Shown here in pieces: positions 13,557 to 39,314 of a stretch of DNA of 64,000 bases (positions within the stretch are counted from its first letter, which is position 1; each line of letters begins with the position of its first letter). The stretch comes from a virus. Made by a program: the position numbers and the translations under genes. Where the stretch lies: the IMG/VR virus record IMGVR_UViG_3300030098_005028, positions 32,001-96,000 of that record. One strand, written 5' to 3'. The notes under the pieces were generated by a model. The model ran no database searches, was not told the DNA's origin, and saw only the letters and a list, made by a program, of their open reading frames with translations.

Positions 13557-14018
13557 TTATTCCTCGCATATTTTTAATATTGTATTTATGTCAAAATTTT
13601 CTAGAATATGATCTACTTTTCTGTTAAAAGAATTTTCTATCACAGAAGAATGATTATGACATCTAGATACTATTTTTATTTTATTATTAGAAAACAAATC
13701 AAGAACTGGATTATAGTTATGTGGCATACGCAGCCATTCTAAGTCCCAGACATAGTATATTTTTGTATTCGCTGAAGGATAAGATGCCATCTTCTTTGCT
13801 GTTGATAAAGAGGTAGCAATCATTATTCCTTCTTGACCCCAAGCCTCTGCCATTTGCATAGTTGGAAATCTAGCAAACATACAGTCTTTCTCTACATTTT
13901 CACAATAAACGGTTGGGTCTACGTTCCCTTTTCCAGCAACTTTGTTGAAATTATTTATCAAATAGTATGATAGCTGACTTGACCCAAGACTTCTTACTAA
14001 TGCTCCTATTTTTATCAT
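13557..14018 (-). CDS. Hypothetical protein resembling the N-terminal domain of a GT-B glycosyltransferase
   Basis: 'IATSLSTA...KIYYVWDLEW' resembles GT4 N-domain 'IAT...T...YFVQD'. Confidence 0.4.
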   Translation of the reverse strand: MIKIGALVRSLGSSQLSYYLINNFNKVAGKGNVDPTVYCENVEKDCMFARFPTMQMAEAWGQEGIMIATSLSTAKKMASYPSANTKIYYVWDLEWLRMPHNYNPVLDLFSNNKIKIVSRCHNHSSVIENSFNRKVDHILENFDINTILKICEE

Positions 14019-14953
14019 TTACTATATCCATTAACAAAATTGACAACTTTCTGAATTTCATTCTTAGTTAGTCTCTCATGATAGGGAAGACTCACTGTGC
14101 TATCAGACTCACTTATAGACTTCCGATAATCTCTGTTATATGGCATATGAATAGATATGTTTTTATAGAATGGCTTTTCATGACAATGTGTATAATGTAT
14201 TCCACATATTATGCCAGATTTTTTTGCTTGTTGAATAAAGTCTTTATTGCTTTTTACTCTTATTCTATATAGATGTCTACTTACATTTTGATAGCCAAAC
14301 TCTTGGTTGTATGTGGCTCTTATGTTATCAAGTATTTCATACTTTTCATTTAGCTTATTTAAGTTCTCATTTGCTATATATGCAGATAAAGAATTCCAGT
14401 GCATCTTATGCCCAGCAGAGCTATGAACTCTTTCCCAATTATTTTCAGAGTAACTCATGCCATTCAGCGTTTTTTCTCTGTAACTTTCTATTGCTTGTTT
14501 ATTATCAGAAACGATTATTCCTCCGTCACAACCGCCTACCGGCTTAGTTGGATAGAAGCTAAATATCATTTCTGCGTTTGGTTTTCCAAGGTCTCTAAAT
14601 TGATTCCTCGTAACTTCTTGGGCAGAATCAATCAATACCTTTTTGCCATCATCAATAAGAGTATATGCACTTCCTACCCAATCAACATCATCATAAAAAA
14701 TATATTTTGAGCCTGCCATTTCAAGAGCGTTAGGAACAACAGGAGGTATGCAACTAGGCACTGAAATTATTTGGTCGTAATCTTTTGTTGCTAGATATAT
14801 CAAGCTAGACGCACTGTTTGCAGAACAAGCATATTTAGCCCCGACATATTCCGCAAATTTTGTTTCAAATTCATTTACTATGTCGCCATGAAGCCAGTTT
14901 CCTAGATCACTGGTGTTTAGCTCATATTGGTTAATGTGAAACAAGTTTATCAT
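14015..14953 (-). CDS. DegT/DnrJ/EryC1/StrS-family PLP sugar aminotransferase
   Basis: 'FE..FAEYVG.KYA', 'IDSAQ', 'FSFYPTKP.G..DGG' (PLP Lys), 'GIHY', 'VSLP'. Confidence 0.9.
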   Translation of the reverse strand: MINLFHINQYELNTSDLGNWLHGDIVNEFETKFAEYVGAKYACSANSASSLIYLATKDYDQIISVPSCIPPVVPNALEMAGSKYIFYDDVDWVGSAYTLIDDGKKVLIDSAQEVTRNQFRDLGKPNAEMIFSFYPTKPVGGCDGGIIVSDNKQAIESYREKTLNGMSYSENNWERVHSSAGHKMHWNSLSAYIANENLNKLNEKYEILDNIRATYNQEFGYQNVSRHLYRIRVKSNKDFIQQAKKSGIICGIHYTHCHEKPFYKNISIHMPYNRDYRKSISESDSTVSLPYHERLTKNEIQKVVNFVNGYSK

Positions 14954-16712
14954 TTTGGTATCTCATTGTTTCCGTTGTTGTAAAGATTGTTGTGTTATCC
15001 ATATCCTGTATAAAGTCATATGGAATTCTAGAAACCATACTGTATCCTTCTAAAAAAGAATCAATGTCATCTGGATTCATAAACCAGAAAGGTCTAAATT
15101 TTTTATTATCAAAATTTTCTAGACTTGCACATGTTTTGGTATCTGTACAAGTCATATCTTCTATAATTATTTCTTTAGCAGAAGATTCTGTTATATCTTT
15201 TAGTATTTTTGAAGGTTCTTTTTCATATTGTACTTTTGATTTTATGTATACGACATCAGACTCCTGTAAATCAAACGTATACTCAACGTCTTCATATAGG
15301 GCATCCAATAGAGATGAAACCTCATCTTTTTCTTCTACAATGATTGAGTACCTCTTATGTTGGCCTTCTTCTATTGATGAAATTAGTCCATGATATTTTT
15401 TCTTGAAGTGTGGCAGGTCAATGCACACATCTTCTTCTTTCTGCCTAACTTCTGGCTGTTCTGTTTTTATACTAATTACTTGATCAAAAGAGTCATACAT
15501 CCCTTTATATAGTCTGCTTGATTTCTGTCTTATTATTTTTGGGGATGGAATGTGAGTTATAAACTTCCCTCCTCGGTTGGCAAAGTCAACTTCTTTGGCG
15601 AATATTTCTTCGGTAAAATTCCAAGCTCCAAGAAAGGCATAATCTACACTATCATCGAAGTGAGATGGGTCTAGTATTGGAATATGCATTCCCGGTGAAA
15701 ATTTGTTTTGCTTTACCTCTGTATTATCTACAATGTAGTCGATTATTTCTGGGCCTATATTGCAATAGTTAAATATACATGTTGATTTTGATGTTGCTCC
15801 GTAGCTAACAATCTTGCTGCCGTTCTTCTTTATAGCCGTCAACATTTCTACTAGTTCATCTCTAGAACTCTGTACATTTCTGGCAAAGGCCTGATAGGTC
15901 TCCAGATTGTCTATTCCCATAGACTGTTCTTCTCTCAAAGAGGCTTCTACACATGGATCGACCTTTACATGAGAGTTTTCTTTGGTCTTTGCAAATACTC
16001 TATTAGAACCTCCATGAACACTGGTTCTTTGTACATCAAATATCTCCATACCTGCATTCTGAAGAAGATTATTCAAAGATGTTAAAGAGAAGAGGTGTGC
16101 GTGTTCATCATATATCTGGTCATAAGAATTTCTTATAAGCATGTCTACAACACAAGGGTCTTCAAAGATAAACACACCATTAGTATCATCCAGAACGTGT
16201 CTAACCGCATGAAATGCCTCTTGTATGTCTGGAATATGACACATACAGTTTGCAGAGTAAACTAAATCCACAAAATAAAGATCTTTGATCTTCTTTGCAG
16301 ATTCCATGTTCCAGAACACATTGAATGTGTCGTAGCCCATTTCTCTGGTCATCTCAGCAAAATTTCCACACGGCTCTACTGATATCGCTTTATTGGTATC
16401 AAAGTGTTTCAAAAATACTCCGTCATTGCTTCCTATTTCTAGTATTCTGCGATATGGATTAGACTCAATCTCTTTAGCAACAGAAGCAAAGTGATCCCTC
16501 ATTGTCTGCGAACCTGAAGAATGATACATGTAGCTATCATTAAACATTAGTGGTGGATCTACAAATTCCATCAGAGAAACTAGTTTAGTCTCATCATCAA
16601 ATCCTACTTTCATGTCAAAGAAAAATTCTTCTTCATTGCTTTCTAGTTGTTCTTTTGTTAGGAAACCATTTGCTATTGGATGTCTTCCTAAGTCTAAAAA
16701 TTCGGTCTGCAT
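14931..16712 (-). CDS. NDP-hexose C-methyltransferase (TcaB9/NovU-like) with ~200 aa C-terminal extension
   Basis: 'LDLG..P.AN.F', 'LEIGSNDG', 'YDQIYDEH', 'VHGGS', 'YGA.SK', 'K..PG.HIPI', 'AWNF'. Confidence 0.9.
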   Translation of the reverse strand: MQTEFLDLGRHPIANGFLTKEQLESNEEEFFFDMKVGFDDETKLVSLMEFVDPPLMFNDSYMYHSSGSQTMRDHFASVAKEIESNPYRRILEIGSNDGVFLKHFDTNKAISVEPCGNFAEMTREMGYDTFNVFWNMESAKKIKDLYFVDLVYSANCMCHIPDIQEAFHAVRHVLDDTNGVFIFEDPCVVDMLIRNSYDQIYDEHAHLFSLTSLNNLLQNAGMEIFDVQRTSVHGGSNRVFAKTKENSHVKVDPCVEASLREEQSMGIDNLETYQAFARNVQSSRDELVEMLTAIKKNGSKIVSYGATSKSTCIFNYCNIGPEIIDYIVDNTEVKQNKFSPGMHIPILDPSHFDDSVDYAFLGAWNFTEEIFAKEVDFANRGGKFITHIPSPKIIRQKSSRLYKGMYDSFDQVISIKTEQPEVRQKEEDVCIDLPHFKKKYHGLISSIEEGQHKRYSIIVEEKDEVSSLLDALYEDVEYTFDLQESDVVYIKSKVQYEKEPSKILKDITESSAKEIIIEDMTCTDTKTCASLENFDNKKFRPFWFMNPDDIDSFLEGYSMVSRIPYDFIQDMDNTTIFTTTETMRYQNDKLVSH

Positions 16713-17038
16713 CTCAACTCCTTGTGCGGTTCTATCTTTTCTAAATCTAATGCCTCAAAAGAGTTGAAGCATCTGTCGCAAATCATTACATCGTATGCGG
16801 GTTTTTTGAATCTGAGTTCATGGTATTTGACTCCATATTTTTCAAATTGAGATTTCGTAAGTTCAGTCCAATCTTCACCGCTTACACTTCCTCTAGCTGT
16901 CCAATAAACTATGTGATGCCCTTCATCATATAATTTGTTTGCTTTTTCAATATTTTTAATTATTGGCTTTGCTTTTTTATAGTTACAATTTTTACTTTGT
17001 GTAAATATGGTATTATCTATATCTATGTATATTTTCAT
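16694..17038 (-). CDS. HAD-superfamily phosphatase (capsule-biosynthesis type)
   Basis: 'IDIDNTI', 'WTARG', 'KP.YD..I.D'. Confidence 0.85.
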   Translation of the reverse strand: MKIYIDIDNTIFTQSKNCNYKKAKPIIKNIEKANKLYDEGHHIVYWTARGSVSGEDWTELTKSQFEKYGVKYHELRFKKPAYDVMICDRCFNSFEALDLEKIEPHKELRCRPNF

Positions 17039-17688
17039 CGTGTCATGTAATGAGACCTCAAAACTAGTCTCTCATTTCCTTCTCTAAGAACTCCTCCAAA
17101 GTGAAATATATCGCTATCAAATATCAATAAATCACCAGCTTTTCCGGTCATCGGTGTCGAATCTTTTTTAGATATATCAAGATGTGGATAGTCTATTTCT
17201 ATTCTGTTTTTTACTTGACTATAATCTGATGAGTTAGACCAAGCTTTTTTTCTTAGCTGTGCGCCTAGATATCTACTTCCTTTTACGACACTAAAAGGGC
17301 CACAGTCCTCATCACAATCAGTTAGGTAAAGAAAAAATTTAAGAGTATGAAATCTATCAAAATGGAGATATCCGTTTCTAGCAAGTTCTTCATTAGCTAT
17401 ATAATCATGAGTCGCTTGGATTGCGTGTAAGTAGTTATCACCTAAGTACTCTTGTTTTGTTGACTTTATCAATTCATTATCGAATACTTTTCTTACTTCG
17501 CTTGAAGGAGGAGCCAGATTTTCCAATGGTATGAAGTTGAGTGCTTTTCCAAATTGATAGCCTCCTTCTGAAAAATTTTCTATTTTTTCCAACACTTCTT
17601 GCTTTATTGTTTCTATATCTTCTAAAGGAACAAACCCTTCTAGTTTGACTATGCCTTCTTTCAGTATTTCTCTAGGTAGATCTTGCAT
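17035..17688 (-). CDS. PhyH-family 2-oxoglutarate/Fe(II) dioxygenase
   Basis: 'LHFD' (HxD), 'YLTD....GP...GS', 'GD..IFD....H.G', terminal R. Confidence 0.85.
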   Translation of the reverse strand: MQDLPREILKEGIVKLEGFVPLEDIETIKQEVLEKIENFSEGGYQFGKALNFIPLENLAPPSSEVRKVFDNELIKSTKQEYLGDNYLHAIQATHDYIANEELARNGYLHFDRFHTLKFFLYLTDCDEDCGPFSVVKGSRYLGAQLRKKAWSNSSDYSQVKNRIEIDYPHLDISKKDSTPMTGKAGDLLIFDSDIFHFGGVLREGNERLVLRSHYMTR

Positions 17689-18607
17689 AATGTTTCACCG
17701 TCTTTTCTATATCTGAATGAAAATCGCCTTCATATTCAAAGCCTTCTGCTCTTAAAAATTGAGAACTTATAGAGTACCTTTGGTCATGACCAAGCCTATC
17801 TTCTACGAATTCAATATGCTCATCAGCTTCTTTGTTCATAACATCACAAATGAGCTTTATCATTTCAATATTTTGTAGCTCAATTCCAGAGGATATATTG
17901 TATATATTGTTTTTTAGGCTATCTCTATTTTTTATTATGAATCCTATTGCTGAGGCAGTTTCATACACAGAAGTCCATTCTCTTATTTGTTTTCCGTCTC
18001 CATAAAGAGGAACCTTCTTCCCTTCAGATATCCTAGTCACAGATTTAGGAAAAAGTTTCTCAGTATGTTGACGTGGGCCAAAATTATTAGATGGCCTAAC
18101 AATAATACATTCAACACCATATGTATTCTCATAGGCTTTTATCATCATATCTGCCGAGGCTTTTGTTGCAGCATATGGATTTTTTGGGTTCAACCTTGCA
18201 TATTCATGGAAAGAACCTTCTGCAATATCACCATATACTTCATCAGTAGAAACATGCAATAATTTGACTGAATCTTCTTTGCAAACTTCTAACAATGATT
18301 TAACACCGAGAACATTAGACCAAAGAAAATCGTCGCAAGATTCAATTGATCTATCAACGTGCGTGTGAGCAGCTAGATTTATAATCCATTGAATATCGTG
18401 ATTTTTACATATTGAGGATATATCCTGTTGTTGATTGATGTCTATTTTGTAGCCCGCTATCGCATTAGGCTCAAAATCAATCGTATTAGCTGGATTAGCG
18501 GCATATGTAAACGAGTCTATGGCCACAACACCGAAGCCGTTATTTGTAAACCAATCTGCTACATGGCTACCAATGAAACCGGCAGAACCTGTAATTGCTA
18601 CATTCAT
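17672..18607 (-). CDS. rfbB: dTDP-glucose 4,6-dehydratase
   Basis: 'TGSAGFIG', 'AA.THVDRSI', 'VSTDEVYG', 'PYAATK', 'DRLGHD.RY'. Confidence 0.95.
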   Translation of the reverse strand: MNVAITGSAGFIGSHVADWFTNNGFGVVAIDSFTYAANPANTIDFEPNAIAGYKIDINQQQDISSICKNHDIQWIINLAAHTHVDRSIESCDDFLWSNVLGVKSLLEVCKEDSVKLLHVSTDEVYGDIAEGSFHEYARLNPKNPYAATKASADMMIKAYENTYGVECIIVRPSNNFGPRQHTEKLFPKSVTRISEGKKVPLYGDGKQIREWTSVYETASAIGFIIKNRDSLKNNIYNISSGIELQNIEMIKLICDVMNKEADEHIEFVEDRLGHDQRYSISSQFLRAEGFEYEGDFHSDIEKTVKHYARST

Positions 18608-19473
18608 TAGACTATTCCGTAAAGATAATTACTGTATTCGTTCTTGCCTAGATTGCCCGCAAGATGTAAGAGTTGCCTTTTGCTGATGTAGCCTAGATTA
18701 TATGCTATCTCTTCCAAGCAGGCAATCTTCAAACCCTGTCTTTTTTCGATTGTCTGTATAAAGTTTGATGCCTCTAATAGAGAATCATGAGAACCAGCGT
18801 CGAACCAAGCATAACCTCGCCCAAATATCTCAAGCATCAACTTCTTGCTTTTCAAGTACACATTATTGACATCGGTTATTTCAAGTTCGCCTCTTGAAGA
18901 AGGACTTATGGTTTTTGCAATTTTTACTACATCATTACTATACATATATAGCCCGACAGCCGCACAATTTGATTTTGGATTTTCAGGCTTTTCCTCGATG
19001 CTTACGACACGTCTATTTCTGTTATATTCTATGACACCATATTCTCTTGCGTCATTAACATGATAACCAAATATTACAGATTTGTTATTTTCAGTTATTT
19101 CTCTGCTAGTTCTAAGAATAGTTGGTAAAGCATCTCCATAAAATATATTATCGCCAAGTATCAAACAAACAGAGTCATCGCCAATAAATTCTTCGGCTAT
19201 TATAAAGCATTCAGCTATTCCTTTTGGCGATTCTTGAATGTTATATTCAATATTTATTCCAAGATGAGAACCGTCTTCAAAAAGAGACTTATATAAATTA
19301 ATCTGGTCAGGCCTTGTAATAACCATGATATCTTTTATTCCTGCCAGCATTAATGTTGACATTGGATAATATATCATCGGCTTATTATATATAGTAAGTA
19401 GCTGCTTCGTTATTACATTAGTTGCTGGATAAAGTCTTGAGCCTGATCCACCAGAAAGCACTATTCCCTTCAT
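18607..19473 (-). CDS. rfbA: Glucose-1-phosphate thymidylyltransferase
   Basis: 'KGIVLSGGSGSRLYP.T...KQL...KPMIYYP', 'LGDNIFYG', 'EKP', 'RGELEITD', 'RG.AW.D.G'. Confidence 0.97.
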   Translation of the reverse strand: MKGIVLSGGSGSRLYPATNVITKQLLTIYNKPMIYYPMSTLMLAGIKDIMVITRPDQINLYKSLFEDGSHLGINIEYNIQESPKGIAECFIIAEEFIGDDSVCLILGDNIFYGDALPTILRTSREITENNKSVIFGYHVNDAREYGVIEYNRNRRVVSIEEKPENPKSNCAAVGLYMYSNDVVKIAKTISPSSRGELEITDVNNVYLKSKKLMLEIFGRGYAWFDAGSHDSLLEASNFIQTIEKRQGLKIACLEEIAYNLGYISKRQLLHLAGNLGKNEYSNYLYGIV

Positions 19474-20543
19474 GACATTGTTCTCAAAAAACCTTGTAAA
19501 TTATCTATTTCTTGCTCACAAAGAGAGTAAGTATCTTCTAAAAAGTAGTACTGTTCTGGCAAATCTATATTAAAAGGGTTTAGTGAACCCACTATTGTTT
19601 GTAAATCTATTAGCCTTGAATCATCACAATACTTTTTAGATTCATCTATCTTACTGACAAGAAGGTCAACATCATCGACTCTGGGGGTGTACATTTCTAT
19701 ATAGCATTTTCTAAAATGATCCCTGCATACATCAAAATCCTCGCCATCACACATAGACATCGCAAATGTGATGCCATCTGTCATTTTAGCAAAGTTCTCA
19801 GGCCATTCACCCTGTCTAATCCATGTATTTTGATCTGGAAAATGTATGTGTCTTTCTCCTCCTTCCACCCTTGGTGTACCATGCTCATGAATAATGTGAC
19901 AGAAAGAATTGTCTCTCATACCGTCTCCCCAAATTATGCTTAGAAACCCTATCATTTGATCGCAGAATCTAAGGTTAGATGGGCTAAGATACCATAATAT
20001 GCTCCAATTCATTTGTGCCGATTGAGTTCTTATAACATTATGCCAATTGCTGTGAAATCTTGTTGCTTGACTGTGAATTCTTTCTGCCGATGTGTCTCCT
20101 GTGATTGACTCAGGAAATTCGGTATACATAGGAGATCTTTCTTCGATTCCTCTCTCTCCAATATGCACCCCTGTCTTTCCCCCTCTAGCCGAACAGAAAT
20201 CTCTATTTTTGTTTAAGAAATCAATACAAGACTTTATTCCATTTATTGTAAAAAAATCATCATTGTCTATAACCATACATAGGGGCGTTTCGACTGCTAG
20301 TAATGATCTAGCGACTTTTCCATAGAAATCCTGAACTGTTTTGTCATATGGAAATCTAAGATATTCAATTTTCAATCCATCATAATAGTTTGATTCTATG
20401 CTTTTTTGTATTCTTGAGTCTATTTCTCCCCCATCAGCTATGACCAAAGGGAAAGGGCATTCTATTTCATACAAATAAGCCAAGAGACGGCGAGAATAGA
20501 ACTCTCTGCCTTTGATTGGTAATACTAGTGTTAGATCATTCAT
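19470..20543 (-). CDS. GT2-like glycosyltransferase (TIGR00180-like)
   Basis: 'LTLVLP.KGR', 'IADGG', 'DNDDF'. Confidence 0.75.
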   Translation of the reverse strand: MNDLTLVLPIKGREFYSRRLLAYLYEIECPFPLVIADGGEIDSRIQKSIESNYYDGLKIEYLRFPYDKTVQDFYGKVARSLLAVETPLCMVIDNDDFFTINGIKSCIDFLNKNRDFCSARGGKTGVHIGERGIEERSPMYTEFPESITGDTSAERIHSQATRFHSNWHNVIRTQSAQMNWSILWYLSPSNLRFCDQMIGFLSIIWGDGMRDNSFCHIIHEHGTPRVEGGERHIHFPDQNTWIRQGEWPENFAKMTDGITFAMSMCDGEDFDVCRDHFRKCYIEMYTPRVDDVDLLVSKIDESKKYCDDSRLIDLQTIVGSLNPFNIDLPEQYYFLEDTYSLCEQEIDNLQGFLRTMS

Positions 20544-21252
20544 TTAATTCTCTTTTCATTTTATCTAGATTCATAGAGGTATCTTTTGGCATTATTTCAC
20601 TAATATCTTCTAGATATATTTTTCCAACATCTGGATTATCTTTTTTTGCGAATTCATATATGCTAGACGATTTTCCTCCTATGTTTATTGTTCCTTTCTT
20701 GTCTAAAAGCATAAGTATTATGTCTGCTACGTCATCATCATATATTAGACTTTTTTTAGAATCTGCTATCGCTGATTTATGAGGAAATGGCTTAGAACAC
20801 ATCGCTACTCTTAGGATGAGATGATTGTCGTGCATTCTTACAGCACATTCGCCTCCAAGTTTAGACCAAGCATACTTATTTATTGGTAATATCGGGTCTT
20901 CTTCTTTGTAGTCTCCAGTCAATCCGGGATAAACAAAGTCAGTTGATATATAAACAAGCTTTATCCCCATCATTATGCAGGTCGCAGCGACATGAGATGT
21001 TCCAACAATATTAGTATGCAGGCTTTCCAAAGGGTTATTATCATGAATATTCATTGGCCGTGTCAATGCGGCGGTATGTATGATTACATCTGGCTTTACA
21101 GCACCAACCCAAAATGTAATGTCTGACATTGATTTGATATTCATCTCCCCTTTTGGAGGAGCGACTATGTCATGATTACGACTACGGTTTGACTGAATTA
21201 TTTTTTTTGCCAGCTTTCCTTCGCCGCCGGTAATTAATATCTTCATACCCAA
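20536..21252 (-). CDS. rfbD: dTDP-4-dehydrorhamnose reductase-like SDR
   Basis: 'ITGG.G.L', 'IH.AA.T', 'YISTDFV..G', 'Y.EED...P.NKYA.SK'. Confidence 0.85.
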   Translation of the reverse strand: MGMKILITGGEGKLAKKIIQSNRSRNHDIVAPPKGEMNIKSMSDITFWVGAVKPDVIIHTAALTRPMNIHDNNPLESLHTNIVGTSHVAATCIMMGIKLVYISTDFVYPGLTGDYKEEDPILPINKYAWSKLGGECAVRMHDNHLILRVAMCSKPFPHKSAIADSKKSLIYDDDVADIILMLLDKKGTINIGGKSSSIYEFAKKDNPDVGKIYLEDISEIMPKDTSMNLDKMKRELNE

Positions 21253-29918: not shown

Positions 29919-29942
29919 AGGATAATCCCTTACTTGATAGCA

Positions 29943-31689: not shown

Positions 31690-32704
31690 TTAAAATCTCC
31701 AAACATTTTTCCGCTTCTTCTTTGTATTGTAAGTGACGTAGCAGACTATTTATCCTGTGGCAATATGTATGTTCTTTCATGACAGTCTCATAACAAGCCT
31801 CTGCATGAGACTTTCTTAAATTAGGACTATCAATAAAATATTCTATCATCTTGATAAATTCATTTTCGTCTCTTGCGACTGGCATCTCATTCTTTGTGAA
31901 TACATCTTCTACAAGAGAGTCTATATGATCGGAGATACAAAAAGACTTGCAAGCAGAAATTTTGAAAACTCTTTCATTAACTTCAAATCCAAACTTATTT
32001 GCGTGAGGCTCGCTTACATTTGGGCATATCTTAGAAGAACAGAATAATTTTCTTACGGTGTCATCATCTGTTACACCGCAATATTGTGGTATTCCCCATC
32101 CAGTACCAAATACTTTCATTCTATATTTACCAACCGGATTAGTAAGTGGGAATAGATACTTAGATAAATTTTGACCTTTATAAGACCAGTAGCCACCAAC
32201 AAATGAAATATCACACTCAAGTTTTTCATCAGGATAGTCTGGGTAGTACACAAAGTGATCTGCTGCTGGCTGCATAGGAATAACATTTATTCCACTATCA
32301 ATCCAAGAAAGCATAGTGTCATGTATTCTTTTAGGATGATAAAAATTGAACAGGGAGAGCCTGTCGCCTATTAGTTGAGAAAGCTTGTAAGCACTTTCTT
32401 TTTCTTTCTGATCAGCAATACCAATTGGGTATTTTTTAATATCTATTATGTCGTCGTAAGGCCCCCAATTATTTGCTTTCAATACTGCCTTAGTATTATT
32501 TATAGCTAAACATTTCGCTGTAGCCCTATCTAAATCATAGGTCGTACCTATAAAAATATCTGGCTTAAACTCATCGAAACAATCAAAGATAGGCTTTGTA
32601 CCATCCCACCATGCCCAGTCCCATCCAATAGACGTAAATACATTCTTCCACCCAGAAATAATGTGGTGTAAAGCAGATGGAAATGTTTTAGACAATACTC
32701 TCAT
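31676..32704 (-). CDS. GT-B glycosyltransferase (CgeB/Glyco_trans_1_2-like)
   Basis: 'DISFVG', 'SKI..N', 'NERVF', 'EHTY.HR'. Confidence 0.8.
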   Translation of the reverse strand: MRVLSKTFPSALHHIISGWKNVFTSIGWDWAWWDGTKPIFDCFDEFKPDIFIGTTYDLDRATAKCLAINNTKAVLKANNWGPYDDIIDIKKYPIGIADQKEKESAYKLSQLIGDRLSLFNFYHPKRIHDTMLSWIDSGINVIPMQPAADHFVYYPDYPDEKLECDISFVGGYWSYKGQNLSKYLFPLTNPVGKYRMKVFGTGWGIPQYCGVTDDDTVRKLFCSSKICPNVSEPHANKFGFEVNERVFKISACKSFCISDHIDSLVEDVFTKNEMPVARDENEFIKMIEYFIDSPNLRKSHAEACYETVMKEHTYCHRINSLLRHLQYKEEAEKCLEILNGNK

Positions 32705-33447
32705 ATTAACTTTATATTCATATTTAGTGTCTGTAAGTCTTTAGGAGAATCTATTTCAAAAATTCTCATACCATTGGGTTCAGATCCAGCAAACCTTCCC
32801 CCTTCTTCTATTACTTTATTTATTGCTTCGTATCCAAACCATTTTTCATGATTGTCTTGTATAGTTATATCTTCTAGATATGTCAATTCCCTGCCATGAA
32901 GATATGCTATCTGACACCATTTGTGTTTTAATCCAAAGGACAGGTTCGTCACCACGTTGTCATCAGACAAGAGAAGCCCAACCTCCTCATCTTTAAAAAA
33001 ACCTTTTGTATCGACGACTAACTTTGATACTCCATCGTGAATACCTTTGATAGCTTTGTAATTAAAGACTAAGTCTCCATACATCAACAACACATTTTTT
33101 CTGTTGCAAACTTGTAAGCCAATGCCAATGCTTCGGCATACATTGTTATTTTCATAATCAAAGTTGTATACAAGTTTTACCGGATATCTTCTTCTTATCT
33201 TTTCTCTTACTAGGTTTGCACCAAATCCCACTACGACAATTATTTCACTTTGAGGATAATATTTATGTATTAGCTTTATTTGTCTCTCAATTATTGAGCT
33301 ATCTTTAATATGTATCAAAGACTTTGGCCCATGAGACTTCATCCTTCTTCCTATTCCAGCAGCAGGTATAACGACAGACAGATCTTCTCCCTTTTGATCT
33401 ACCTGTTGCTCTTTTGCTTTGACTACATTTCTAGACGCTGCTGACAT
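32701..33447 (-). CDS. NTP transferase (LicC/phosphocholine cytidylyltransferase-like)
   Basis: 'IPAAGIGRRM....PKSL', 'N..Y..NN', 'GD', 'EIDS..DL'. Confidence 0.75.
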   Translation of the reverse strand: MSAASRNVVKAKEQQVDQKGEDLSVVIPAAGIGRRMKSHGPKSLIHIKDSSIIERQIKLIHKYYPQSEIIVVVGFGANLVREKIRRRYPVKLVYNFDYENNNVCRSIGIGLQVCNRKNVLLMYGDLVFNYKAIKGIHDGVSKLVVDTKGFFKDEEVGLLLSDDNVVTNLSFGLKHKWCQIAYLHGRELTYLEDITIQDNHEKWFGYEAINKVIEEGGRFAGSEPNGMRIFEIDSPKDLQTLNMNIKLI

Positions 33448-33459
33448 TACGATTCCGCA

Positions 33460-34206
33460 TTAAGTTGATTGAGAGGATTCCTTTTGCAATCTAATTCTAT
33501 CCCTTATCTTTTCCCAGTTTTTGTGCCATATTTCTGAAGGCACTGTATCTGATGCATTGAATCCTGTTACAGAATATGTTGACAACGGAACAGGTATATG
33601 TATAGCAACAAATTTACTTGTAATTCTTAGCCACAAGTCCCAGTCTTCGGCTGTCCTCATAGACTCATCATAAAGACCAACTTGATCTAATGCCTTTTTA
33701 TTTATAAGAGGAGTATTGGAGATGATGCACTCCTTCTCTATTTCCTCTCTACTGTATGGTCTTCTTAGTTCGAGCATCTGCGTATTATTCTCTATGTTTT
33801 GAATTAATACATCAGCATATACAAGACCTATGTTAGAAATGTCTTCTTTAATTATTTCTACAGACATACTAATCTTATTTGGAAGATAAGTGTCATCTGC
33901 ATCCAGCATGCAAAAGAAGTCAGTTTCATTCCAAAATTTTTGTATTGCTACATTCCTTGCGGCAGATGGGCCTGTAGGAAATGTATTGTATATAGCGTCT
34001 ATACCTATCTCTTCAGACATTGATTCTATTTTTTGTTTAGAACCATCAGTAGATCCATCATCTACTACGACAACACGTTTATTTCCATAGTCTTGATCTA
34101 GAACACTTTGAACTGCACGCTCAACATACATTTCGTGATTGTGACATGGAATTACAACTGTTACGCTTGGAGTACTTGTTCCAGATTTCTTACCAAGTGT
34201 TTGCAT
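33460..34206 (-). CDS. GT2 glycosyltransferase
   Basis: 'VVIP.HN', 'VVDDGSTD', 'G.S.ARN', 'LDADD', 'EDWDLW'. Confidence 0.93.
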   Translation of the reverse strand: MQTLGKKSGTSTPSVTVVIPCHNHEMYVERAVQSVLDQDYGNKRVVVVDDGSTDGSKQKIESMSEEIGIDAIYNTFPTGPSAARNVAIQKFWNETDFFCMLDADDTYLPNKISMSVEIIKEDISNIGLVYADVLIQNIENNTQMLELRRPYSREEIEKECIISNTPLINKKALDQVGLYDESMRTAEDWDLWLRITSKFVAIHIPVPLSTYSVTGFNASDTVPSEIWHKNWEKIRDRIRLQKESSQST

Positions 34207-35048
34207 CCTTGACTCTCCGAAATTCTCTTTATTTTGTCAATAAATAATTCTTCTCTTTCCTCTTCCGTGTCCAAATTTCCACCAGTCATTTTGTAGGCTT
34301 TCGTCTGGTACACGTCTCCATTTCCCTCATCTCCTTCTATGGCTAATATCTGTTCAAGATCATCAACTATCGCTGTGTTTATTTTTGAGTAGAAATCTTT
34401 TATTGGTATATGTCCAGCATCAAATACGCTTATATAACCAAAGAAATTAGCATTAACCTTATTAGCGGCAATATTAACGCAAAGTCCTCTTGTTAGTGAT
34501 TTATCATTTATATGTTCGATTGAAAAACTTATGTTAAATCTATTACAAAGTCTTTTTAATCCTATTGGCTGTATAGAAGAATTGTTGTTGATAAATGTTA
34601 CATGTTTAGGTTGAAGGTCTTGTTCTAATACAGATATCAATGTTTCTTCAACATCTTCCATATCATTACTTTCGCTGATATAAATTATGCATTTGAATTT
34701 TATTTTTGACTCTCTTCTTACTGCGAAGACTGGGTCTTTATGTACGTTGGCCCAGTCCTCGTTTCTCCAAAAAACACAATATCTGTCACGAATGACAAAG
34801 AACTCATTTCCTTGGTCATCATAGCAGTCATCAACAACGACACCCTTATCTTTGAACTTTTGTATTCTTCCTAACTCACAAGAAGTTTGTGTGTTTTCCT
34901 CATAAACTGCGAAAATGCAATTTCTGCACACCGTCTCTGGCGTTTCGGCTTCAGGTGAGAGATGAGATTCTTGCTTTAATGTTTTGTCTAAGAAAGCATC
35001 GGGCGGCTCTGCAAATTCATTGGAAAGACGATCATTATCTTCTGACAT
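34161..35048 (-). CDS. Hypothetical protein (N-terminal Cys cluster, possible degenerate GT-A fold)
   Basis: 295 aa; 'CRNC...C...C' followed by 'L.SV..Q...P' and 'VFDAG'. Confidence 0.45.
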   Translation of the reverse strand: MSEDNDRLSNEFAEPPDAFLDKTLKQESHLSPEAETPETVCRNCIFAVYEENTQTSCELGRIQKFKDKGVVVDDCYDDQGNEFFVIRDRYCVFWRNEDWANVHKDPVFAVRRESKIKFKCIIYISESNDMEDVEETLISVLEQDLQPKHVTFINNNSSIQPIGLKRLCNRFNISFSIEHINDKSLTRGLCVNIAANKVNANFFGYISVFDAGHIPIKDFYSKINTAIVDDLEQILAIEGDEGNGDVYQTKAYKMTGGNLDTEEEREELFIDKIKRISESQGCKHLVRNLEQVLQA

Positions 35049-35509
35049 TATGGTCTTTGTCCCTCTACTAATAACTTATGTTCAAAAGTCTGTTTTTTAA
35101 TTATCTTTAACCCATGTGTTGACTCTAGATAATGAGCTAAACTAATTACAGTGATAGCGTTTTTTCTGATAAACGGTTCTTCTTCACCATATAGCATAGA
35201 ATTTATGTCTGCTATACTAATGTCGTGTTCATAAAAAGACTTGCATATAGAATGTGAGTCAGCAGCACCAATAATTATTTTTCCACCATGTCTAAGTTTG
35301 CTGACCCAATGGTCTATTATACCTAACACTTCATTTTTACAGAAAAAATTTATAACATCTAATGCTAATATTTCAGAAGCTTCTGCGTCGTCAATGAATT
35401 CTGTCAAGTCTGTCATGTTTCCATGATGACAACCTTCAGAAGCACCTAAATGGTTTACATTCAAATATCCACTGAGTGGTGCGCCTCCATATAATAAGTT
35501 AACCTTCAT
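35048..35509 (-). CDS. Short methyltransferase-like protein
   Basis: 'KVNL..G....GY.N', 'L..GG.I.I'. Confidence 0.55.
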   Translation of the reverse strand: MKVNLLYGGAPLSGYLNVNHLGASEGCHHGNMTDLTEFIDDAEASEILALDVINFFCKNEVLGIIDHWVSKLRHGGKIIIGAADSHSICKSFYEHDISIADINSMLYGEEEPFIRKNAITVISLAHYLESTHGLKIIKKQTFEHKLLVEGQRP

Positions 35510-36524
35510 CTGATGCTTCCTCGAATAGTATATTCCAATTTGTTAAAAATTTGTCTAAAGAAAATCTTTCTTCTATTGTTTTTCTCGCCGCTTCACCCAT
35601 TTTTTTTGCTAAAGAATCATTTAAAAGAAGTTCTTGTGTGTACTGACGAAGATCCATTGGGTCATTAGACAGAAATCCATTCACTCCATGTTCTATAATT
35701 TCTGGAATCATACAATTATTTGTAGAGACTATAGCACATCCGCAAGACATCGCCTCTAACATAGATGTAGGTATTGGTGATGCTGTAGACGTATTTAGAT
35801 AAACTCTTGAGTTATCGTAAACAGAAGCCAGTTCTTTAGTATCAGTAGCAGGTTTTGATATTCCGGGATTGTCACCAATAACTTTGACGGGAACGACTTG
35901 ATTATGAGGAAAGCCAGTAGCGGTTCTCCATAGCGTAAACCCACAGCACCAGTCTCTGTTAGCCCAATCATTAACAACTGACAGGGCAACCTTTTCCCTG
36001 TCTAATATATCTGTAGAGCATTTAAAAACATCCATATCAATTCCATGATGGATAACATGATATGGGTTTTCCCACTCCCATGCTTGCCTATTGTATTCTG
36101 AAATATACACATTGTAGTCAGCAATCATCTTTTTGCTCTCTGTCAATGCATCTTGATGCAAGGGGTTTGCTGTAGTCGTAGTGGTATGTTCTATATTGAT
36201 AAGAGAACAGCCTATCTGTCTGGCTAGATCTTGTCCTACCCAAAATTGTCCATACTTATTCTGACTAAGGACAAGGTCTATATCTATGTACGAAGGAACT
36301 TCTATATTATCTGGATTAGAATATATGATATGGTAGTTGCTTGGAATTTCCGCATACTGTTCATTCCAGTTTCCTTTTGTAAAGTCTTTTATTGCGAGAG
36401 AATAGAAGTTATGGCCTGTCTTACATAAGTTGCTTTCATATCTCTCATGAGTAGGAAAAGTTATTATGTTTAGAGGTTCGCCTTTTTCTCTAGTCGCTTT
36501 TCTAAGTAATGTTCTTAATAGCAT
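35499..36524 (-). CDS. GT4 glycosyltransferase
   Basis: 'I.HGID', 'P.S.LEAMSCG..IVS', 'I.HG.NG'. Confidence 0.9.
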   Translation of the reverse strand: MLLRTLLRKATREKGEPLNIITFPTHERYESNLCKTGHNFYSLAIKDFTKGNWNEQYAEIPSNYHIIYSNPDNIEVPSYIDIDLVLSQNKYGQFWVGQDLARQIGCSLINIEHTTTTTANPLHQDALTESKKMIADYNVYISEYNRQAWEWENPYHVIHHGIDMDVFKCSTDILDREKVALSVVNDWANRDWCCGFTLWRTATGFPHNQVVPVKVIGDNPGISKPATDTKELASVYDNSRVYLNTSTASPIPTSMLEAMSCGCAIVSTNNCMIPEIIEHGVNGFLSNDPMDLRQYTQELLLNDSLAKKMGEAARKTIEERFSLDKFLTNWNILFEEASDEG

Positions 36525-37629
36525 CTTTCATTTCTTTCCCAACATTGCTCAACGAAAAATCATAAGCCCTATTAATTCCAGAATCAGACTTGCTTTTCCT
36601 TTTTTCATGATCTTTGTATGCTTCTCTCATGCATCTCATCAAGTCAAGAACATCAATGTTCCACCAGTTCTCTCTGGCAGAAAACATTGAAGGAAGAGAG
36701 CTATTACTCATTCCAAAAACAGGTTCTTGATTATTCTTGACAAGCCATCCATTACTGTCGTCGATAAATTCAGTCATCCCGCCTACATTATTAACGATAG
36801 GTGTATTTCCCATAGCCATTGCATCAAAAGCAGGCATGCACCATCCTTCACCAAAAGACGGCATTACAAAACAGTCACATGTCTGATGAACAACCATCAT
36901 CATTTCCTGACTAAGATTTTGACAGAGAATGAGTTCTTGCTTATAGTCATTTTTGTTTTTATATATTTTAAGTTCTGTTTTAACTGTGTCACACATTTCC
37001 TGTACTTTTTGCGAGCATTCAGCGTCTGACATTCCCGAAAGATTCGCCTTTATTAACAGGTGTACATTTTCAGAAGGAGCAAACTCTAAATGAAAAGCCT
37101 TGAGCAAAGCTACTAGATTTTTTCTTCGTGTTACTTCACCAACAAAGTAGAAAACAAAATTGTCTTTTAGTTCTGGTAACTGTTGATATAAGTTGTCATA
37201 TTCTTTTTCATAAACAGAAGTGTCTACTGGAACATGAAACTTTCTAATTGGAATATTAACTCCACTGGATTCAGAAACTTTTCTTGATTGAAAGTTTGCT
37301 ACCCAAGCTTCATCTAAGAGATTTATCTTTTCTACCCATCCAGATCTTTTTATGCTACTAGTCTCAGTAAAATACAATCCGACGTTCTTCAACTTGCCGT
37401 GATATTCCATCTGGTAAGGAAGTATATTTTGAATTACTAATTCACATCCACTGATATCTTTCTTCTCAAGCTCAAGTATTCTTTCTGGAACATCTGCTTG
37501 GTTGTTATTCAGTTTTATATGTCTAGGAACAACATCAACATTTGCAGCATCCAAAGCTAGTATGTAATTTTGGGCTGCGTTTCCCCACCCTGTTCCGTCT
37601 CTATAGACTCCAACAAATAAAGTTTTCAT
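36502..37629 (-). CDS. GT4 glycosyltransferase
   Basis: 'RKN...L..AF', 'DCFV.PS.GEGW..P..DAMA.G'. Confidence 0.9.
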   Translation of the reverse strand: MKTLFVGVYRDGTGWGNAAQNYILALDAANVDVVPRHIKLNNNQADVPERILELEKKDISGCELVIQNILPYQMEYHGKLKNVGLYFTETSSIKRSGWVEKINLLDEAWVANFQSRKVSESSGVNIPIRKFHVPVDTSVYEKEYDNLYQQLPELKDNFVFYFVGEVTRRKNLVALLKAFHLEFAPSENVHLLIKANLSGMSDAECSQKVQEMCDTVKTELKIYKNKNDYKQELILCQNLSQEMMMVVHQTCDCFVMPSFGEGWCMPAFDAMAMGNTPIVNNVGGMTEFIDDSNGWLVKNNQEPVFGMSNSSLPSMFSARENWWNIDVLDLMRCMREAYKDHEKRKSKSDSGINRAYDFSLSNVGKEMKDAIKNIT

Positions 37630-39314
37630 TTTGGATCAGCGGCCTTTATAAATTCTGGAACATAATCACTAGGATTTGTTCTGATATGCTCCCAATAGTT
37701 ATTTACTTCACACATTTCTTGGCAGAATTCAATCACCTCTTTAGATGTATAAGGAACTTGCGACCTTCTTCTCTCAGCAAATGCCGAAGATTCATCTAAA
37801 TTGTATGCACCATTGATTGGAGAAACAGAGAATCCTATGTTGAGGTCTCTAAGCATCCTTTGACATAGATAGCTATCTTTCTTACCTACGTCTCCCCATA
37901 TATTGCATATGCACCATTCAACAAAGTCTTTCTTAGACAAGTTAGTAGGAATTTCTTGCTGTGGATTATGTGTTCTTGCAGGAGAGTCCCAAGTCTGGTC
38001 ATGAGGAACTATCTCTACAGTATCAAAGTGGTCTTCCCATTTTTTTGCTGTTTTGTCCCAGTCGTATCTATCTGTTGCGCATTTGTAAGTATTCTTGGAA
38101 ATACTATCTCTTTCTTCTTTACTTTTTGAAAGTAGAGAATACAACTTTGTAATGAAATCTTCTTCTATTGGGTATGCTCTGTATGTGTGGGTCTCATATT
38201 CTCTGAACATAGTGCAGTCGATAGGCACGCCTCCTACATTTCTTACCACAGATGACATTGCAGAATAATCAACAGACATAACTGGCACGCCACAAAAAGC
38301 AGCTTCAACTTGTGGCATACCAAAGCCTTCACATATGCTGTACTGAACATAGACATCAAAACAGTTAATAATGTTTGCTAACTGCGAAGATGATATTCCT
38401 CCTTGAGTAGAAGGCATAAAAGCTGAAATATTACCCGTTGGAGGACAGACGGTTCTTCCTCCTTTAAAGAATGAAGGGAATGTATACTCACAATCTTTAC
38501 AGTCGTAAGTCACAAGCACTTTACTACCAACTCCTGATTCCCTTATTAATCTAGGAATGTCCCATCCTAAGTCTGGATAGGTTGTGTGCATGTAAAGATA
38601 AGTCTTCTCTCCAATCTCAGGGTATCGTTTCACAAACTCTGCAAATGCCTGAAGAAGCTCTGGGTATAGTTTTCTTTTTTGATTCCTCATGACGGTTCCA
38701 ATGATGAAAATATCATCTTCAAAACCCATTTCTTTACGAAATTTTTTCCTATCTTGTGGCGGCTTAAATATTTTTCTATCTGCCGCTGGAGAGCATATGT
38801 CTAATACCTCAATTAGGCCATTGGTCTCTTCCTCTAAAACTTCTTTTCCATATTCAGAATATGTGAACACGGCATCAGCATCCATATAGGTAGCAAGCCA
38901 TTCTTCTTGGTTTGGCGCTGAGTCTATAGTAGGCATAATTACCCAATGATAAAAAGGTCTAAAAGGAGACCTTTGCTCAAACTCCATCATCCACCAGTCA
39001 CGAATATCGCAAACTATGTCTGGCTTAAAGTTCAGACAGACATCTTCAAACCTCCAAGCCCCAAATTGATTCAATGCATTAGACATGTACTGTTGGTGTG
39101 CGACAGTATCATTTTCATGAGGAGCATTCCCATAAAACTTCCAAGGAATACCTGCTCTTCTTTTGTCGTCATAAGTTGAATAACAGGCGAACTCAGCAAG
39201 TTCGTATTTTCCAGTAGCATACAGTCTGGACATAACCTCCTTCGTATAGATGGAGTATCCAGTATGCATGAAAGATGCTTCTGTACAAAAAAGAATTCTA
39301 GGTTTTCTATTCAT
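37626..39314 (-). CDS. Large GT4 glycosyltransferase
   Basis: 'TGY', 'RNQ.RK', 'EGFG.P..EA..CGVP'; probable start 39314 (ORF track 39341). Confidence 0.88.
   Translation of the reverse strand: MNRKPRILFCTEASFMHTGYSIYTKEVMSRLYATGKYELAEFACYSTYDDKRRAGIPWKFYGNAPHENDTVAHQQYMSNALNQFGAWRFEDVCLNFKPDIVCDIRDWWMMEFEQRSPFRPFYHWVIMPTIDSAPNQEEWLATYMDADAVFTYSEYGKEVLEEETNGLIEVLDICSPAADRKIFKPPQDRKKFRKEMGFEDDIFIIGTVMRNQKRKLYPELLQAFAEFVKRYPEIGEKTYLYMHTTYPDLGWDIPRLIRESGVGSKVLVTYDCKDCEYTFPSFFKGGRTVCPPTGNISAFMPSTQGGISSSQLANIINCFDVYVQYSICEGFGMPQVEAAFCGVPVMSVDYSAMSSVVRNVGGVPIDCTMFREYETHTYRAYPIEEDFITKLYSLLSKSKEERDSISKNTYKCATDRYDWDKTAKKWEDHFDTVEIVPHDQTWDSPARTHNPQQEIPTNLSKKDFVEWCICNIWGDVGKKDSYLCQRMLRDLNIGFSVSPINGAYNLDESSAFAERRRSQVPYTSKEVIEFCQEMCEVNNYWEHIRTNPSDYVPEFIKAADPK

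Follow-up and report, generated by a model that had tools for sequence, protein, structure and literature searches.

What would a tailed phage do with a 31-gene operon for making and transferring sugars, and on what acceptor would its enzymes build a glycan? The operon in question lies on the minus strand at positions 13557-39341 of a 64,000-nucleotide stretch of DNA (the window), which comprises bases 32001-96000 of virus record IMGVR_UViG_3300030098_005028 (143,058 bp, estimated 95% complete). We find that this island is native phage DNA made up of a conserved core and a swappable cargo, and our preferred reading, in which our confidence is evenly balanced, is that it is a phage glycosylation factory working in the host cytoplasm with no lipid carrier and acting on a phage product, most likely a virion surface protein.

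Results

Extent and gene content of the island

The island consists of 31 open reading frames (ORFs) that overlap at 27 of their 30 junctions, the largest gap being 32 nt; the first gene probably starts at the ATG at 39314, which overlaps the stop codon of ssb. The unbroken run of coupled genes directly after ssb that the initial annotation of this DNA had described was borne out, but its placement inside a replication block was not: the island instead occupies the 3' end of the replication operon, between ssb and a nuclease gene, and converges on the tail module. It would be transcribed as the tail end of that operon.

Proteins were annotated by Pfam and NCBIfam profile searches with curated cut-offs. 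Scores over these cut-offs were obtained for RmlA, KdsA, FdtA, DegT, PhyH, a CmcI-type O-methyltransferase and CTP_transf_3, NTP_transf_3, Methyltransf_14 and Methyltransf_13 domains, as well as for eight glycosyltransferases (GT29, two GT2, three GT4, Glyco_trans_1_2 and TIGR04440); three further glycosyltransferases are weak. RmlB and Fcl match strongly yet fall under their equivalog cut-offs, the CMP synthetase is likewise strong and sub-threshold, and the RmlD-like ORF, the cupin at 22524, the GT8-like ORF and the HAD-like phosphatase are weak or partial matches. The profiles agree with the earlier listing of FdtA, a DegT aminotransferase, C- and O-methyltransferases, KdsA, a CMP-sugar synthetase, Fcl, a LicC-like transferase and a PhyH oxygenase. 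A full rfbABCD set had also been listed, of which RmlA and RmlB are solid, whereas RmlD is represented by a half-length match and RmlC by a weak cupin; similarly, among the roughly ten glycosyltransferases counted, the GT2, GT4, GT29 and CgeB-like enzymes are upheld in the eight named above, and the GT8-like one stays under its cut-off. The genes, in the order of transcription, are as follows.

37629-39314, minus strand: sugar-island GT4, core ('GT571'; Pfam Glycos_transf_1), with GT-B fold, CxxC..CxxC zinc ribbon insert and C-terminal helical domain
36502-37629, minus strand: core GT4 (Glycos_transf_1 E 9e-16), in 57 loci, collinear in relatives G001-G005
35499-36524, minus strand: core GT4 (Glycos_transf_1 E 8e-17), collinear in relatives
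35048-35509, minus strand: core 153-aa protein, no Pfam match, conserved in relatives G001-G003; its profile finds only insignificant methyltransferase-type matches in PDB
34161-35048, minus strand: core protein with N-terminal Cys cluster (invariant C41/C44/C57/C91) and weak GT-A-like body, no Pfam match; its profile matches PDB 5tze, deposited as 'glycosyl transferase', at E 1e-3
33460-34206, minus strand: core GT2 (Glycos_transf_2 E 2e-24)
32701-33447, minus strand: core sugar-phosphate nucleotidyltransferase, LicC/GlmU-N-like (NTP_transf_3 E 3e-10, with NCBIfam matches), in 55 loci
31676-32704, minus strand: core Glyco_trans_1_2 (CgeB-like) glycosyltransferase (E 1e-21), collinear in relatives
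30748-31689, minus strand: GDP-L-fucose synthase (Fcl)-like SDR (NF047922 E 5e-91, 305 bits, under the 500-bit cut-off)
29943-30773, minus strand: candidate glycosyltransferase (GT-D/GT-A-like), a lead; no Pfam match, Atlas structure match to GT-D (PF08759) with TM 0.84 by query, and a match to a viral Atlas cluster of 1278 members
29133-29918, minus strand: candidate methyltransferase, a lead; Atlas feature matches to O-methyltransferase/Methyltransf_24 clusters at 0.91-0.97
28192-29100, minus strand: GT8-like protein, weak (Glyco_transf_8 E 0.004, under cut-off)
27302-28195, minus strand: GT2 (Glycos_transf_2 23.9 bits, cut-off 23.3)
26638-27321, minus strand: class I SAM methyltransferase (Methyltransf_31/12/25)
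26000-26650, minus strand: GT29 (sialyltransferase-family) protein of 216 aa, anchor-less, candidate CMP-sugar transferase (PF00777 E 3e-21, 76.4 bits, cut-off 23)
25120-26007, minus strand: DHDPS/NAL-family class I aldolase (PF00701 E 1e-9; NCBIfam matches weak)
24356-25123, minus strand: KdsA, Kdo-8-phosphate synthase (NF003543 247 bits, cut-off 242)
23644-24366, minus strand: CmcI/rhamnosyl-type O-methyltransferase (PF04989 E 3e-61)
22970-23647, minus strand: CMP-ulosonic-acid synthetase (CTP_transf_3 E 6e-27; TIGR03584 E 9e-41 against kdsB E 6e-10), closer to PseF/NeuA than to KdsB
22524-22973, minus strand: cupin (WbuC/FdtA/RmlC-like; Pfam/NCBIfam), weak
22129-22545, minus strand: FdtA-type dTDP-sugar 3,4-ketoisomerase (PF05523 E 4e-47)
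21182-22144, minus strand: SDR epimerase/reductase (PF01370 E 8e-29)
20536-21252, minus strand: short RmlD-like reductase, N-terminal half match only (TIGR01214 E 5e-29, model positions 1-149 of 285)
19470-20543, minus strand: TIGR04440-type glycosyltransferase (120.9 bits, cut-off 70)
18607-19473, minus strand: RmlA (TIGR01207 415 bits, cut-off 360.65)
17672-18607, minus strand: RmlB (TIGR01181 E 3e-94)
17035-17688, minus strand: PhyH-family 2OG/Fe(II) oxygenase (PF05721 E 1e-10)
16694-17038, minus strand: small HAD-like phosphatase, candidate Kdo-8-P phosphatase, weak (TIGR01689 E 1e-4, under cut-off; weak Pfam HAD matches)
14931-16712, minus strand: sugar C-methyltransferase (Zn-binding N-domain and Methyltransf_14) fused to a second methyltransferase-like domain (Methyltransf_14/13 E 1e-48)
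14015-14953, minus strand: short (312 aa) DegT/DnrJ/EryC1-type sugar aminotransferase (PF01041 E 2e-28)
13557-14018, minus strand: conserved terminal 153-aa protein, no family match and no significant PDB relatives, adjoining the nuclease in G001-G005

A core and a cargo in a fixed slot

Using the DnaE-C and GT4 proteins, we collected 112 related viral contigs. The order DnaE-SSB-GT4 is kept in 107 of these 112 loci, with the distal nuclease also present in 58. In about 55 loci the nuclease lies 2-6 kb from the GT4; five closer relatives have 9.4-18.6 kb between the two genes, and the present phage has 24 kb. Because this distance varies while the flanking order holds, the island divides into two parts: the eight genes at 31676-39314 are a core in fixed order among the closer relatives, and 14015-30773 is swappable cargo specific to the present phage. 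The closer relatives read, in order, GT4, GT4, GT4, 153-aa protein, Cys/GT-A-like protein, GT2, nucleotidyltransferase, CgeB-like glycosyltransferase, a variable stretch, 153-aa protein and nuclease, with Fcl flanking the variable stretch on one side or the other depending on the relative. The first GT4 is kept by the whole lineage and the order of the other core genes by the closer relatives, one of which holds other sugar genes in the same slot (different SDRs, a GT25-like protein, a HAD-nucleotidyltransferase fusion, WavE and a cupin). Synteny in related phage contigs had been proposed as a check on the island, and the same SSB-GT4 and 153-aa-nuclease junctions do recur in them. No cultured relative was found among 50,697 phage records by megablast of the island or by tblastn of DnaE-N, the core GT4 and TerL, and DnaE identity in these records was 35% at most.

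The first core GT4 (37629-39314) was modelled by AF2 as a GT-B fold with a pLDDT of 92.7. Its best PDB match is the chlorovirus NY-2A enzyme B736L (3oy2, E 3.5e-19), it has weak profile matches to Gtf1 (4pqg, 5e9t), and its C-terminal domain gave only an insignificant match in the PDB profile search, to a type I restriction enzyme fragment (8tzm, E 0.006). Family invariants are C272/C275/C290/C293 in the CxxC..CxxC insert and E329..E337 in the E-x7-E motif. A profile search of 1.84 billion representatives returned 1257 homologues at E<=1e-30; in the 50,697 phage records its matches, to cyanosiphoviruses S-CBS4 and S-EIVl and Tetrasphaera phage TJE1, were at 20-23% only. Forty-three of the best 150 representatives carry intein-like inserts, one or two per protein and 137-400 aa long, and are themselves two to three times longer; the inserts start with Cys and end in HN before a C, the intein call being made on boundary residues only, and they lie at five or more sites (after residues 102, 109, 124, 132, 212 and 328-332, numbered as in the window's protein). 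No insert is present in that protein itself, and a single-sequence PDB search with one long insert-bearing homologue (P0029) gave no matches. Since the family is widespread and often insert-bearing, these data suggest that the phages conserve the core GT4 as a gene they cannot do without, in contrast to accessory genes of sporadic occurrence.

Native phage DNA

One could suppose that bacterial DNA has been joined to a phage contig, as the enzymes are of bacterial type and the record is a metagenome assembly, but we regard a chimera or host contamination as hardly credible. More than 50 independent contigs, drawn from different samples, share the SSB-GT4 and 153-aa-nuclease junctions; strand, tight coupling and codon use are continuous with the flanks (codon use of core and cargo against replication genes, r 0.96-0.97; GC3 0.29 in the island and 0.29-0.32 elsewhere); the sole N run is 50 kb from the island, at genome 121268-121277; and the closest bacterial RmlA is only 61% identical. 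The best genome matches of RmlA, at 53-61% identity, are scattered over Bacillota, Bacteroidota, Campylobacterota, archaea and others, and an attempt to name a host or donor from them was dropped as uninformative. Direct repeats are absent from the island and its only inverted repeat, of 27 nt, is weak; there is thus no sign of a transposon or recent duplication. Because phage hallmark genes (a large terminase, phrog_2, E 4e-23, and a 1991-aa tape measure) stand in the same record, codon use matches and the junctions recur in independent contigs, we conclude that the island is native phage DNA and not a chimera.

Membrane steps and DNA-base enzymes

A hydropathy scan detected no transmembrane (TM) segments in the island proteins except for one internal hydrophobic stretch in the GT29-like protein, in agreement with the earlier remark that the glycosyltransferases have no obvious TM anchors. 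Across the 143-kb record the maximum was five hydrophobic stretches per protein, in a protein of only 151 aa, and the scan revealed no flippase-, polymerase-, initiating transferase- or permease-like protein in the genome. Within the island ORFs, Pfam gave no match to an initiating polyprenyl-phosphate transferase of the WecA/WbaP type and none over threshold to ABC or Polysacc_synt. The claim that wzx/wzy, an ABC exporter and an undecaprenyl initiating transferase are missing is therefore sustained by both the genome-wide hydropathy scan and the island Pfam search, while what the island does share with a bacterial O-antigen or capsule locus is the joining of nucleotide-sugar genes and several glycosyltransferases in one operon.

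Thymidylat_synt (PF00303), Thy1/ThyX (PF02511) and DNA_methylase (PF00145) are absent from the whole record, in searches whose controls worked. Tet_JBP (PF12851) also had no match in the whole record, but its control gave none either, making this negative a weak one. These profiles thus revealed none of the known routes to a DNA base that can be glycosylated.

Donor pathways

The enzyme families are observed, and from them we infer the chemistry of donor supply. In a dTDP branch, RmlA and RmlB would make dTDP-4-keto-6-deoxyglucose, which FdtA, DegT, the C-methyltransferase and the SDR reductases would convert to 3-amino and branched or 6-deoxy sugars. In a CMP branch, KdsA, the small HAD-like phosphatase and the NeuA/PseF-like synthetase would yield a CMP-Kdo-type acid, for which the anchor-less GT29-like enzyme is the candidate transferase and which the CmcI-type O-methyltransferase would methylate. 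The GT29-family match of 26000-26650 spans positions 58-271 of the 272 in PF00777, and a CMP-ulosonic acid is its candidate donor, as suggested by the adjoining KdsA and CMP-synthetase genes. Among the 50,697 phage records, GT29 relatives occur only in LR756508.1, an uncultured 484-kb phage with four copies.

In a GDP branch, Gmd, which lies outside the window, and the island's Fcl would make GDP-fucose. The gmd gene is at genome 8235-9200 on the plus strand (421 bits, over cut-off), among unannotated genes just before terminase; four ORFs near it upstream of terminase have no informative PDB relatives. Judged by their profile matches, Gmd and Fcl complete a predicted GDP-L-fucose route. Equivalog cut-offs were passed by RmlA, KdsA and Gmd, and neither a SIS-type arabinose-5-phosphate isomerase nor NeuB is encoded. 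The predicted enzyme set supports the view that the donors within reach of the island include methylated, acidic (Kdo-type), amino-deoxy and fucose-type sugars.

A glycosyltransferase in the tail module

Two overlapping genes of the tail module bear on the acceptor.

8583-9365, plus strand: GT-A-fold glycosyltransferase, no Pfam match, AF2 pLDDT 79.6, invariant Q113-D114-D115
9352-10308, plus strand: Ser/Thr-tract protein, candidate acceptor, with 22 Ser/Thr among the 30 residues at positions 14-43 and 31 Cys; overlaps the GT-A gene

The PDB matches listed for the GT-A protein are without exception glycosyltransferases or enzymes that contain a glycosyltransferase. POMGnT1 (5ggi, E 5e-10) ranks first, and GnT-I, LH3, ppGalNAc-T and mimivirus R699/R655 are among the others; protein O-glycan enzymes (POMGnT1, ppGalNAc-T, LH3) are thus among them. 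The Ser/Thr-tract protein is the only one of its kind in the genome, and a Ser- and Cys-rich protein also comes after the GT-A gene in relatives L203 and L205. Gene order and composition make this pair the best clue to a putative acceptor. A DUF6171-like Cys-rich protein follows the poly-Ser gene, and the trio, at window 8583-10720, recurs in the same two relatives.

Second cluster, flanking genes and the record as a whole

A second glycosyltransferase cluster lies upstream of the replication genes and begins within the window.

61199-63569, minus strand: start of the second glycosyltransferase cluster (GT47/RXYLT1-like, then GT4), which runs beyond the window to genome 108036

Its genes comprise GT47/RXYLT1-like, GT4, Nucleotid_trans, CAP59-like, NodZ-like, GT64-like, GT2 and O-methyltransferase members, five of its glycosyltransferases scoring over curated cut-offs, and within it lie a matrixin-type (M10) metallopeptidase (E 1e-38) and a weak nucleoside 2-deoxyribosyltransferase-like ORF. 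In total, 13 glycosyltransferases of the genome are recognised by curated cut-offs and one more by its fold, none of these being TM-anchored; about six others are weak.

The plus-strand structural module extends from genome ~2975 to 43386, ending at window 11386, and from there to the far end of the record runs one minus-strand block. Upstream of the island lie genes for SSB, a split DnaE, a PD-(D/E)xK nuclease, a dNMP kinase, a Toprim primase-like protein, DnaB, RecA and class I ribonucleotide reductase; downstream are a Vsr/DUF559-like nuclease, two more small genes and then a strong bidirectional hairpin. The features next to the island are these.

39692-39700, minus strand: TGTTATAAT, an extended -10-like site in the 62-nt gap ahead of ssb
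39307-39654, minus strand: SSB, conserved proximal flank of the island (Pfam SSB E 4e-10), in 95 related loci
12779-13555, minus strand: Vsr/DUF559-like nuclease, conserved distal flank of the island (DUF559 21.7 bits, cut-off 20.6), in 58 loci

The site TGTTATAAT had been put forward as the promoter of this region; its single copy in the window is not above chance (1.66 expected), and we regard it as a plausible promoter at best. Promoter-like sites in general were rarer in the promoter scan than in shuffled sequence. DnaE (39717-43915) is split into an N-terminal ORF (PHP and polymerase core) and a C-terminal one (finger, HhH, OB) with a DEDDh-type exonuclease gene between them, an arrangement kept in about 110 related loci. 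Homologues of the Vsr/DUF559-like nuclease number 740, hardly vary in length and come mostly from contigs of phage size (about 142-151 kb); the nuclease is a convenient lineage marker. Its weak match to 2OG-FeII_Oxy_2 (E 0.006) raised the thought of a DNA-base dioxygenase, which was rejected because the alignment lacks the HxD..H triad and the homologues are Vsr-type endonucleases, named very-short-patch-repair endonuclease by JGI.

The hairpin, terminator-like with a 14-bp stem, is at 11512-11542 in the 3' part of the minus-strand ORF 11381-11881 and marks the meeting point of the two convergent transcription blocks; the terminator scan found no other strong hairpin and no strong internal terminator in the island. 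One tRNA-Arg(TCT) is present in the whole record and no tRNA in the window, and PHROGs gave almost no matches for the tail genes. Both record ends (genome 1-60 and 142999-143058) are the same short tandem repeat of GTCTGCCGATT-like units; the assembly probably broke inside a repeat array, and the genome may be essentially complete.

Discussion

How might such an island work? On our preferred reading of a cytoplasmic factory for phage-product glycosylation, about eleven soluble island glycosyltransferases would build the chain directly on the acceptor, probably with the participation of about eight more from the second cluster; the candidate priming step would be the tail GT-A acting on the adjoining poly-Ser protein, and the cargo at 14015-30773 would set the glycan type. 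We favour a phage protein as the target because a GT-A-fold gene in the tail module adjoins the poly-Ser protein, and the best structural match of the core GT4, a chlorovirus glycosyltransferase, was counted on the same side, as were, indirectly, the conservation of that GT4 and the frequent intein-like inserts in its family. Taking this a step further, and more tentatively, we suggest that a widespread, uncultured aquatic tailed-phage lineage may build complex, strain-variable glycans on its own tail or virion proteins in the manner of giant viruses, the GT-A priming, the core, with its often intein-bearing first GT4, elongating and the cargo setting a 'serotype'.

Several points weigh against this reading. 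The initial annotation had placed the glycan on virion proteins or the host surface; the soluble, phage-borne system it described is there, but the acceptor is suggested by gene neighbourhood and fold only, and the tail pair does not tie the big island to a poly-Ser acceptor and may be a separate small system unrelated to it. It had likewise called the system independent of lipid carriers, which its phage-borne, soluble character and lack of membrane steps favour; however, most glycosyltransferases of O-antigen and capsule pathways are also soluble, so a host lipid-linked primer and host export are still compatible with the data. Kdo, dTDP-6-deoxy sugars and FdtA products are typical of lipopolysaccharide (LPS), capsule and S-layer glycans, and with no arabinose-5-phosphate isomerase encoded the Kdo branch would depend on the host. 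The core adjoins replication and recombination genes, not structural genes, and inteins are commonest in DNA-metabolism proteins, which a DNA target would fit equally well. Finally, weak matches underlie the GT8-like protein, the HAD-like phosphatase and the proteins at 34161-35048, 29943-30773 and 29133-29918.

The main rival is remodelling of the host surface, in which phage enzymes extend or replace an LPS O-antigen, capsule or S-layer glycan on host lipid-linked intermediates that the host exports, and which would block superinfection or alter cell-surface properties during infection. The sugar set of dTDP-6-deoxy and 3-amino sugars, a Kdo-type acid and fucose is that of bacterial envelopes, the variable cargo resembles O-antigen and capsule loci, the missing isomerase implies a host already making Kdo precursors, and this is the published view of the P-SSM2, pelagimyophage and S-SCSM2R clusters (PMC1079782, PMC7029224, PMC7824862, PMC12801897), although it has never been demonstrated for the cyanophage clusters either. 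We nevertheless rate it as less likely: 143 kb of genome are without an initiating transferase, flippase, polymerase, ligase or exporter; nearly all relatives retain the core, whose GT4 in many cases bears intein-like inserts, which is not how sporadic accessory genes behave; a glycosyltransferase is embedded in the tail module; and no integrase or other sign of lysogeny turned up in the annotated regions, not every ORF having been scanned.

Improbable, in our estimation, is hypermodification of DNA, whereby the conserved GT4 and its neighbours would glycosylate phage bases against restriction and the cargo would diversify the sugar. One could point to the core lying directly after DnaE and SSB and before the nuclease/annealase pair, to a dNMP kinase in the same operon, to the preference of inteins for DNA-metabolism genes, to the deoxyribosyltransferase-like ORF in the second cluster, and to phage DNA glycosyltransferases that include GT-B enzymes and form clusters adding up to trisaccharides (bioRxiv 10.1101/2023.12.21.572611; PMC13326640). 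The described routes, however, all start from a base carrying a hydroxyl group, which comes from a thymidylate-synthase homologue or from a C5-methyltransferase with a TET/JBP dioxygenase, and none of these enzymes was matched, with the Tet_JBP negative weak as noted; the flank protein is a Vsr-like nuclease without the HxD..H triad, the island oxygenase is of the PhyH type, and some 14-20 glycosyltransferases, three donor pathways and several methyltransferases go far beyond any known DNA glycan. Still more doubtful, and in our view very improbable, is a soluble product, either a small molecule decorated with sugars or an unattached oligosaccharide, which as a metabolite would affect the host or competitors. 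Natural-product glycosides do contain amino, C-methyl and O-methyl deoxysugars, and the pathways for antibiotic deoxysugars often include a TylC3-type C-methyltransferase, DegT, FdtA and O-methyltransferases; for one cyanophage cluster, a secondary metabolite derived from sugars has been proposed by Iyer et al. (PMC7824862). Yet no aglycone enzymes (PKS, NRPS, terpene, aminocyclitol) are among the annotated ORFs, the number of glycosyltransferases implies an oligo- or polysaccharide, and the lineage-wide core points to a phage-intrinsic target.

The nearest parallels are the sugar clusters of cyanomyoviruses and pelagimyophages (P-SSM2, S-SCSM1, S-SCSM2R; PMC1079782, PMC7824862, PMC12801897, PMC7029224), which likewise belong to aquatic tailed phages and combine SDR epimerases, cupin isomerases and nucleotidyltransferases with KdsA and a CMP-Kdo synthetase. 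P-SSM2 has 24 sugar genes in two clusters (PMC1079782), the major one of 15 genes (PMC7824862); S-SCSM2R has 22, including KdsA/KdsB, and 13 glycosyltransferases, in its authors' words possibly the highest number in a marine phage (PMC12801897); and pelagimyophages have many sugar genes too (PMC7029224). These phages are lytic, and their clusters, with up to 13 glycosyltransferases, vary between relatives and have never had a function shown. Unlike them, the present genome is siphovirus-like (143 kb) with no cultured relative, and has one contiguous 31-gene operon, whose proximal end is anchored by a lineage-wide core at a constant position behind SSB. It also has GT29 and further families of eukaryote type, and one of its glycosyltransferases is encoded within the tail module. 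With its 13 glycosyltransferases, one more by fold and about six weak ones, it equals or exceeds the published maximum, in a genome of about half the size. The island had been called far larger than described phage loci; this holds in comparison with mycobacteriophage loci but not with cyanomyoviruses, for which 22-24 sugar genes and 13 glycosyltransferases have been published. The island is unusually large and enzyme-rich, and large marine-phage sugar clusters have already been described.

Giant viruses offer a second likeness (chlorovirus capsid glycans, Mimivirus/Megavirinae fibrils, CroV; PMC9614988, PMC10117803, PMC4691112), in that virus-encoded donor pathways are joined to soluble glycosyltransferases; glycosylation there is cytoplasmic, without the ER/Golgi or lipid-carrier export, and employs rare, bacterial-like, methylated sugars. 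In the 38-kb cluster of CroV, which comprises 34 ORFs, a Kdo-8-P synthase stands together with a CMP-NeuAc-synthetase-like activator and a 3-O-methyltransferase (PMC9614988), and window 22970-25123 has the same three activities by enzyme family (Kdo-8-P synthase, CMP activator, O-methyltransferase). The resemblance is one of families and logic, not orthology, and in contrast to giant viruses we are dealing with a tailed phage of a presumably bacterial host that is known here from its genes alone. According to Freeman et al. 2023, as cited in PMC12619734 and PMC12801897, phage virion glycosylation is known experimentally only in mycobacteriophages, where Che8, Corndog and Myrna modify capsid and tail-tube proteins with their own glycosyltransferases. 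Phage-encoded glycosyltransferases are common to both cases; unlike the mycobacteriophage system, the present one comprises 31 genes and three donor pathways, stands beside replication genes and is read from gene content. Mycobacteriophage loci reportedly hold few glycosyltransferases, lie beside structural genes and use host donors.

The poly-Ser protein abutting a glycosyltransferase gene also recalls the serine-rich-repeat adhesins of Gram-positive bacteria (GtfA/GtfB, GT-D/DUF1792 dGT1), in which soluble GT-B, GT-A and GT-D enzymes O-glycosylate a poly-Ser protein stepwise in the cytoplasm. GT-D takes part in Fap1 glycosylation. The links here, from the core GT4 to Gtf1 and from 29943-30773 to the GT-D fold, are weak or at the level of fold only, and unlike those systems no SecA2/Y2 export system is found here. 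Phage DNA hypermodification clusters (T4 a/b-GT; MT + 5mYOX + GT; arabinosyl-5hoC; 10.1101/2023.12.21.572611, PMC13326640) share the setting of glycosyltransferases beside DNA-metabolism genes, a diversity of sugars and enzymes related to those of LPS and teichoic acid; they differ in that base-hydroxylating enzymes were searched for and not found here, and that the scale of the island is far larger.

Regardless of the acceptor, the anchor-less glycosyltransferases (GT29-family here; GT47-, GT64- and GT77-like in the second cluster) and rare-sugar enzymes are a source for glycoengineering. Marine-phage sugar clusters have been seen since 2005 and their target has never been shown; with its fixed core, its hypervariable cargo as in bacterial serotype loci, its lack of membrane parts and its tail glycosyltransferase beside a candidate acceptor, this lineage is a cleaner system for asking. 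If DNA or the host envelope is the target, the island would be an unusually elaborate system of anti-restriction or superinfection exclusion. If the virion is the target, giant eukaryotic viruses and a few actinophages would no longer be alone in making complex glycan coats of their own, and phage glycan types would be under diversifying selection, with a bearing on host recognition, particle stability and recognition by grazers or immune systems.

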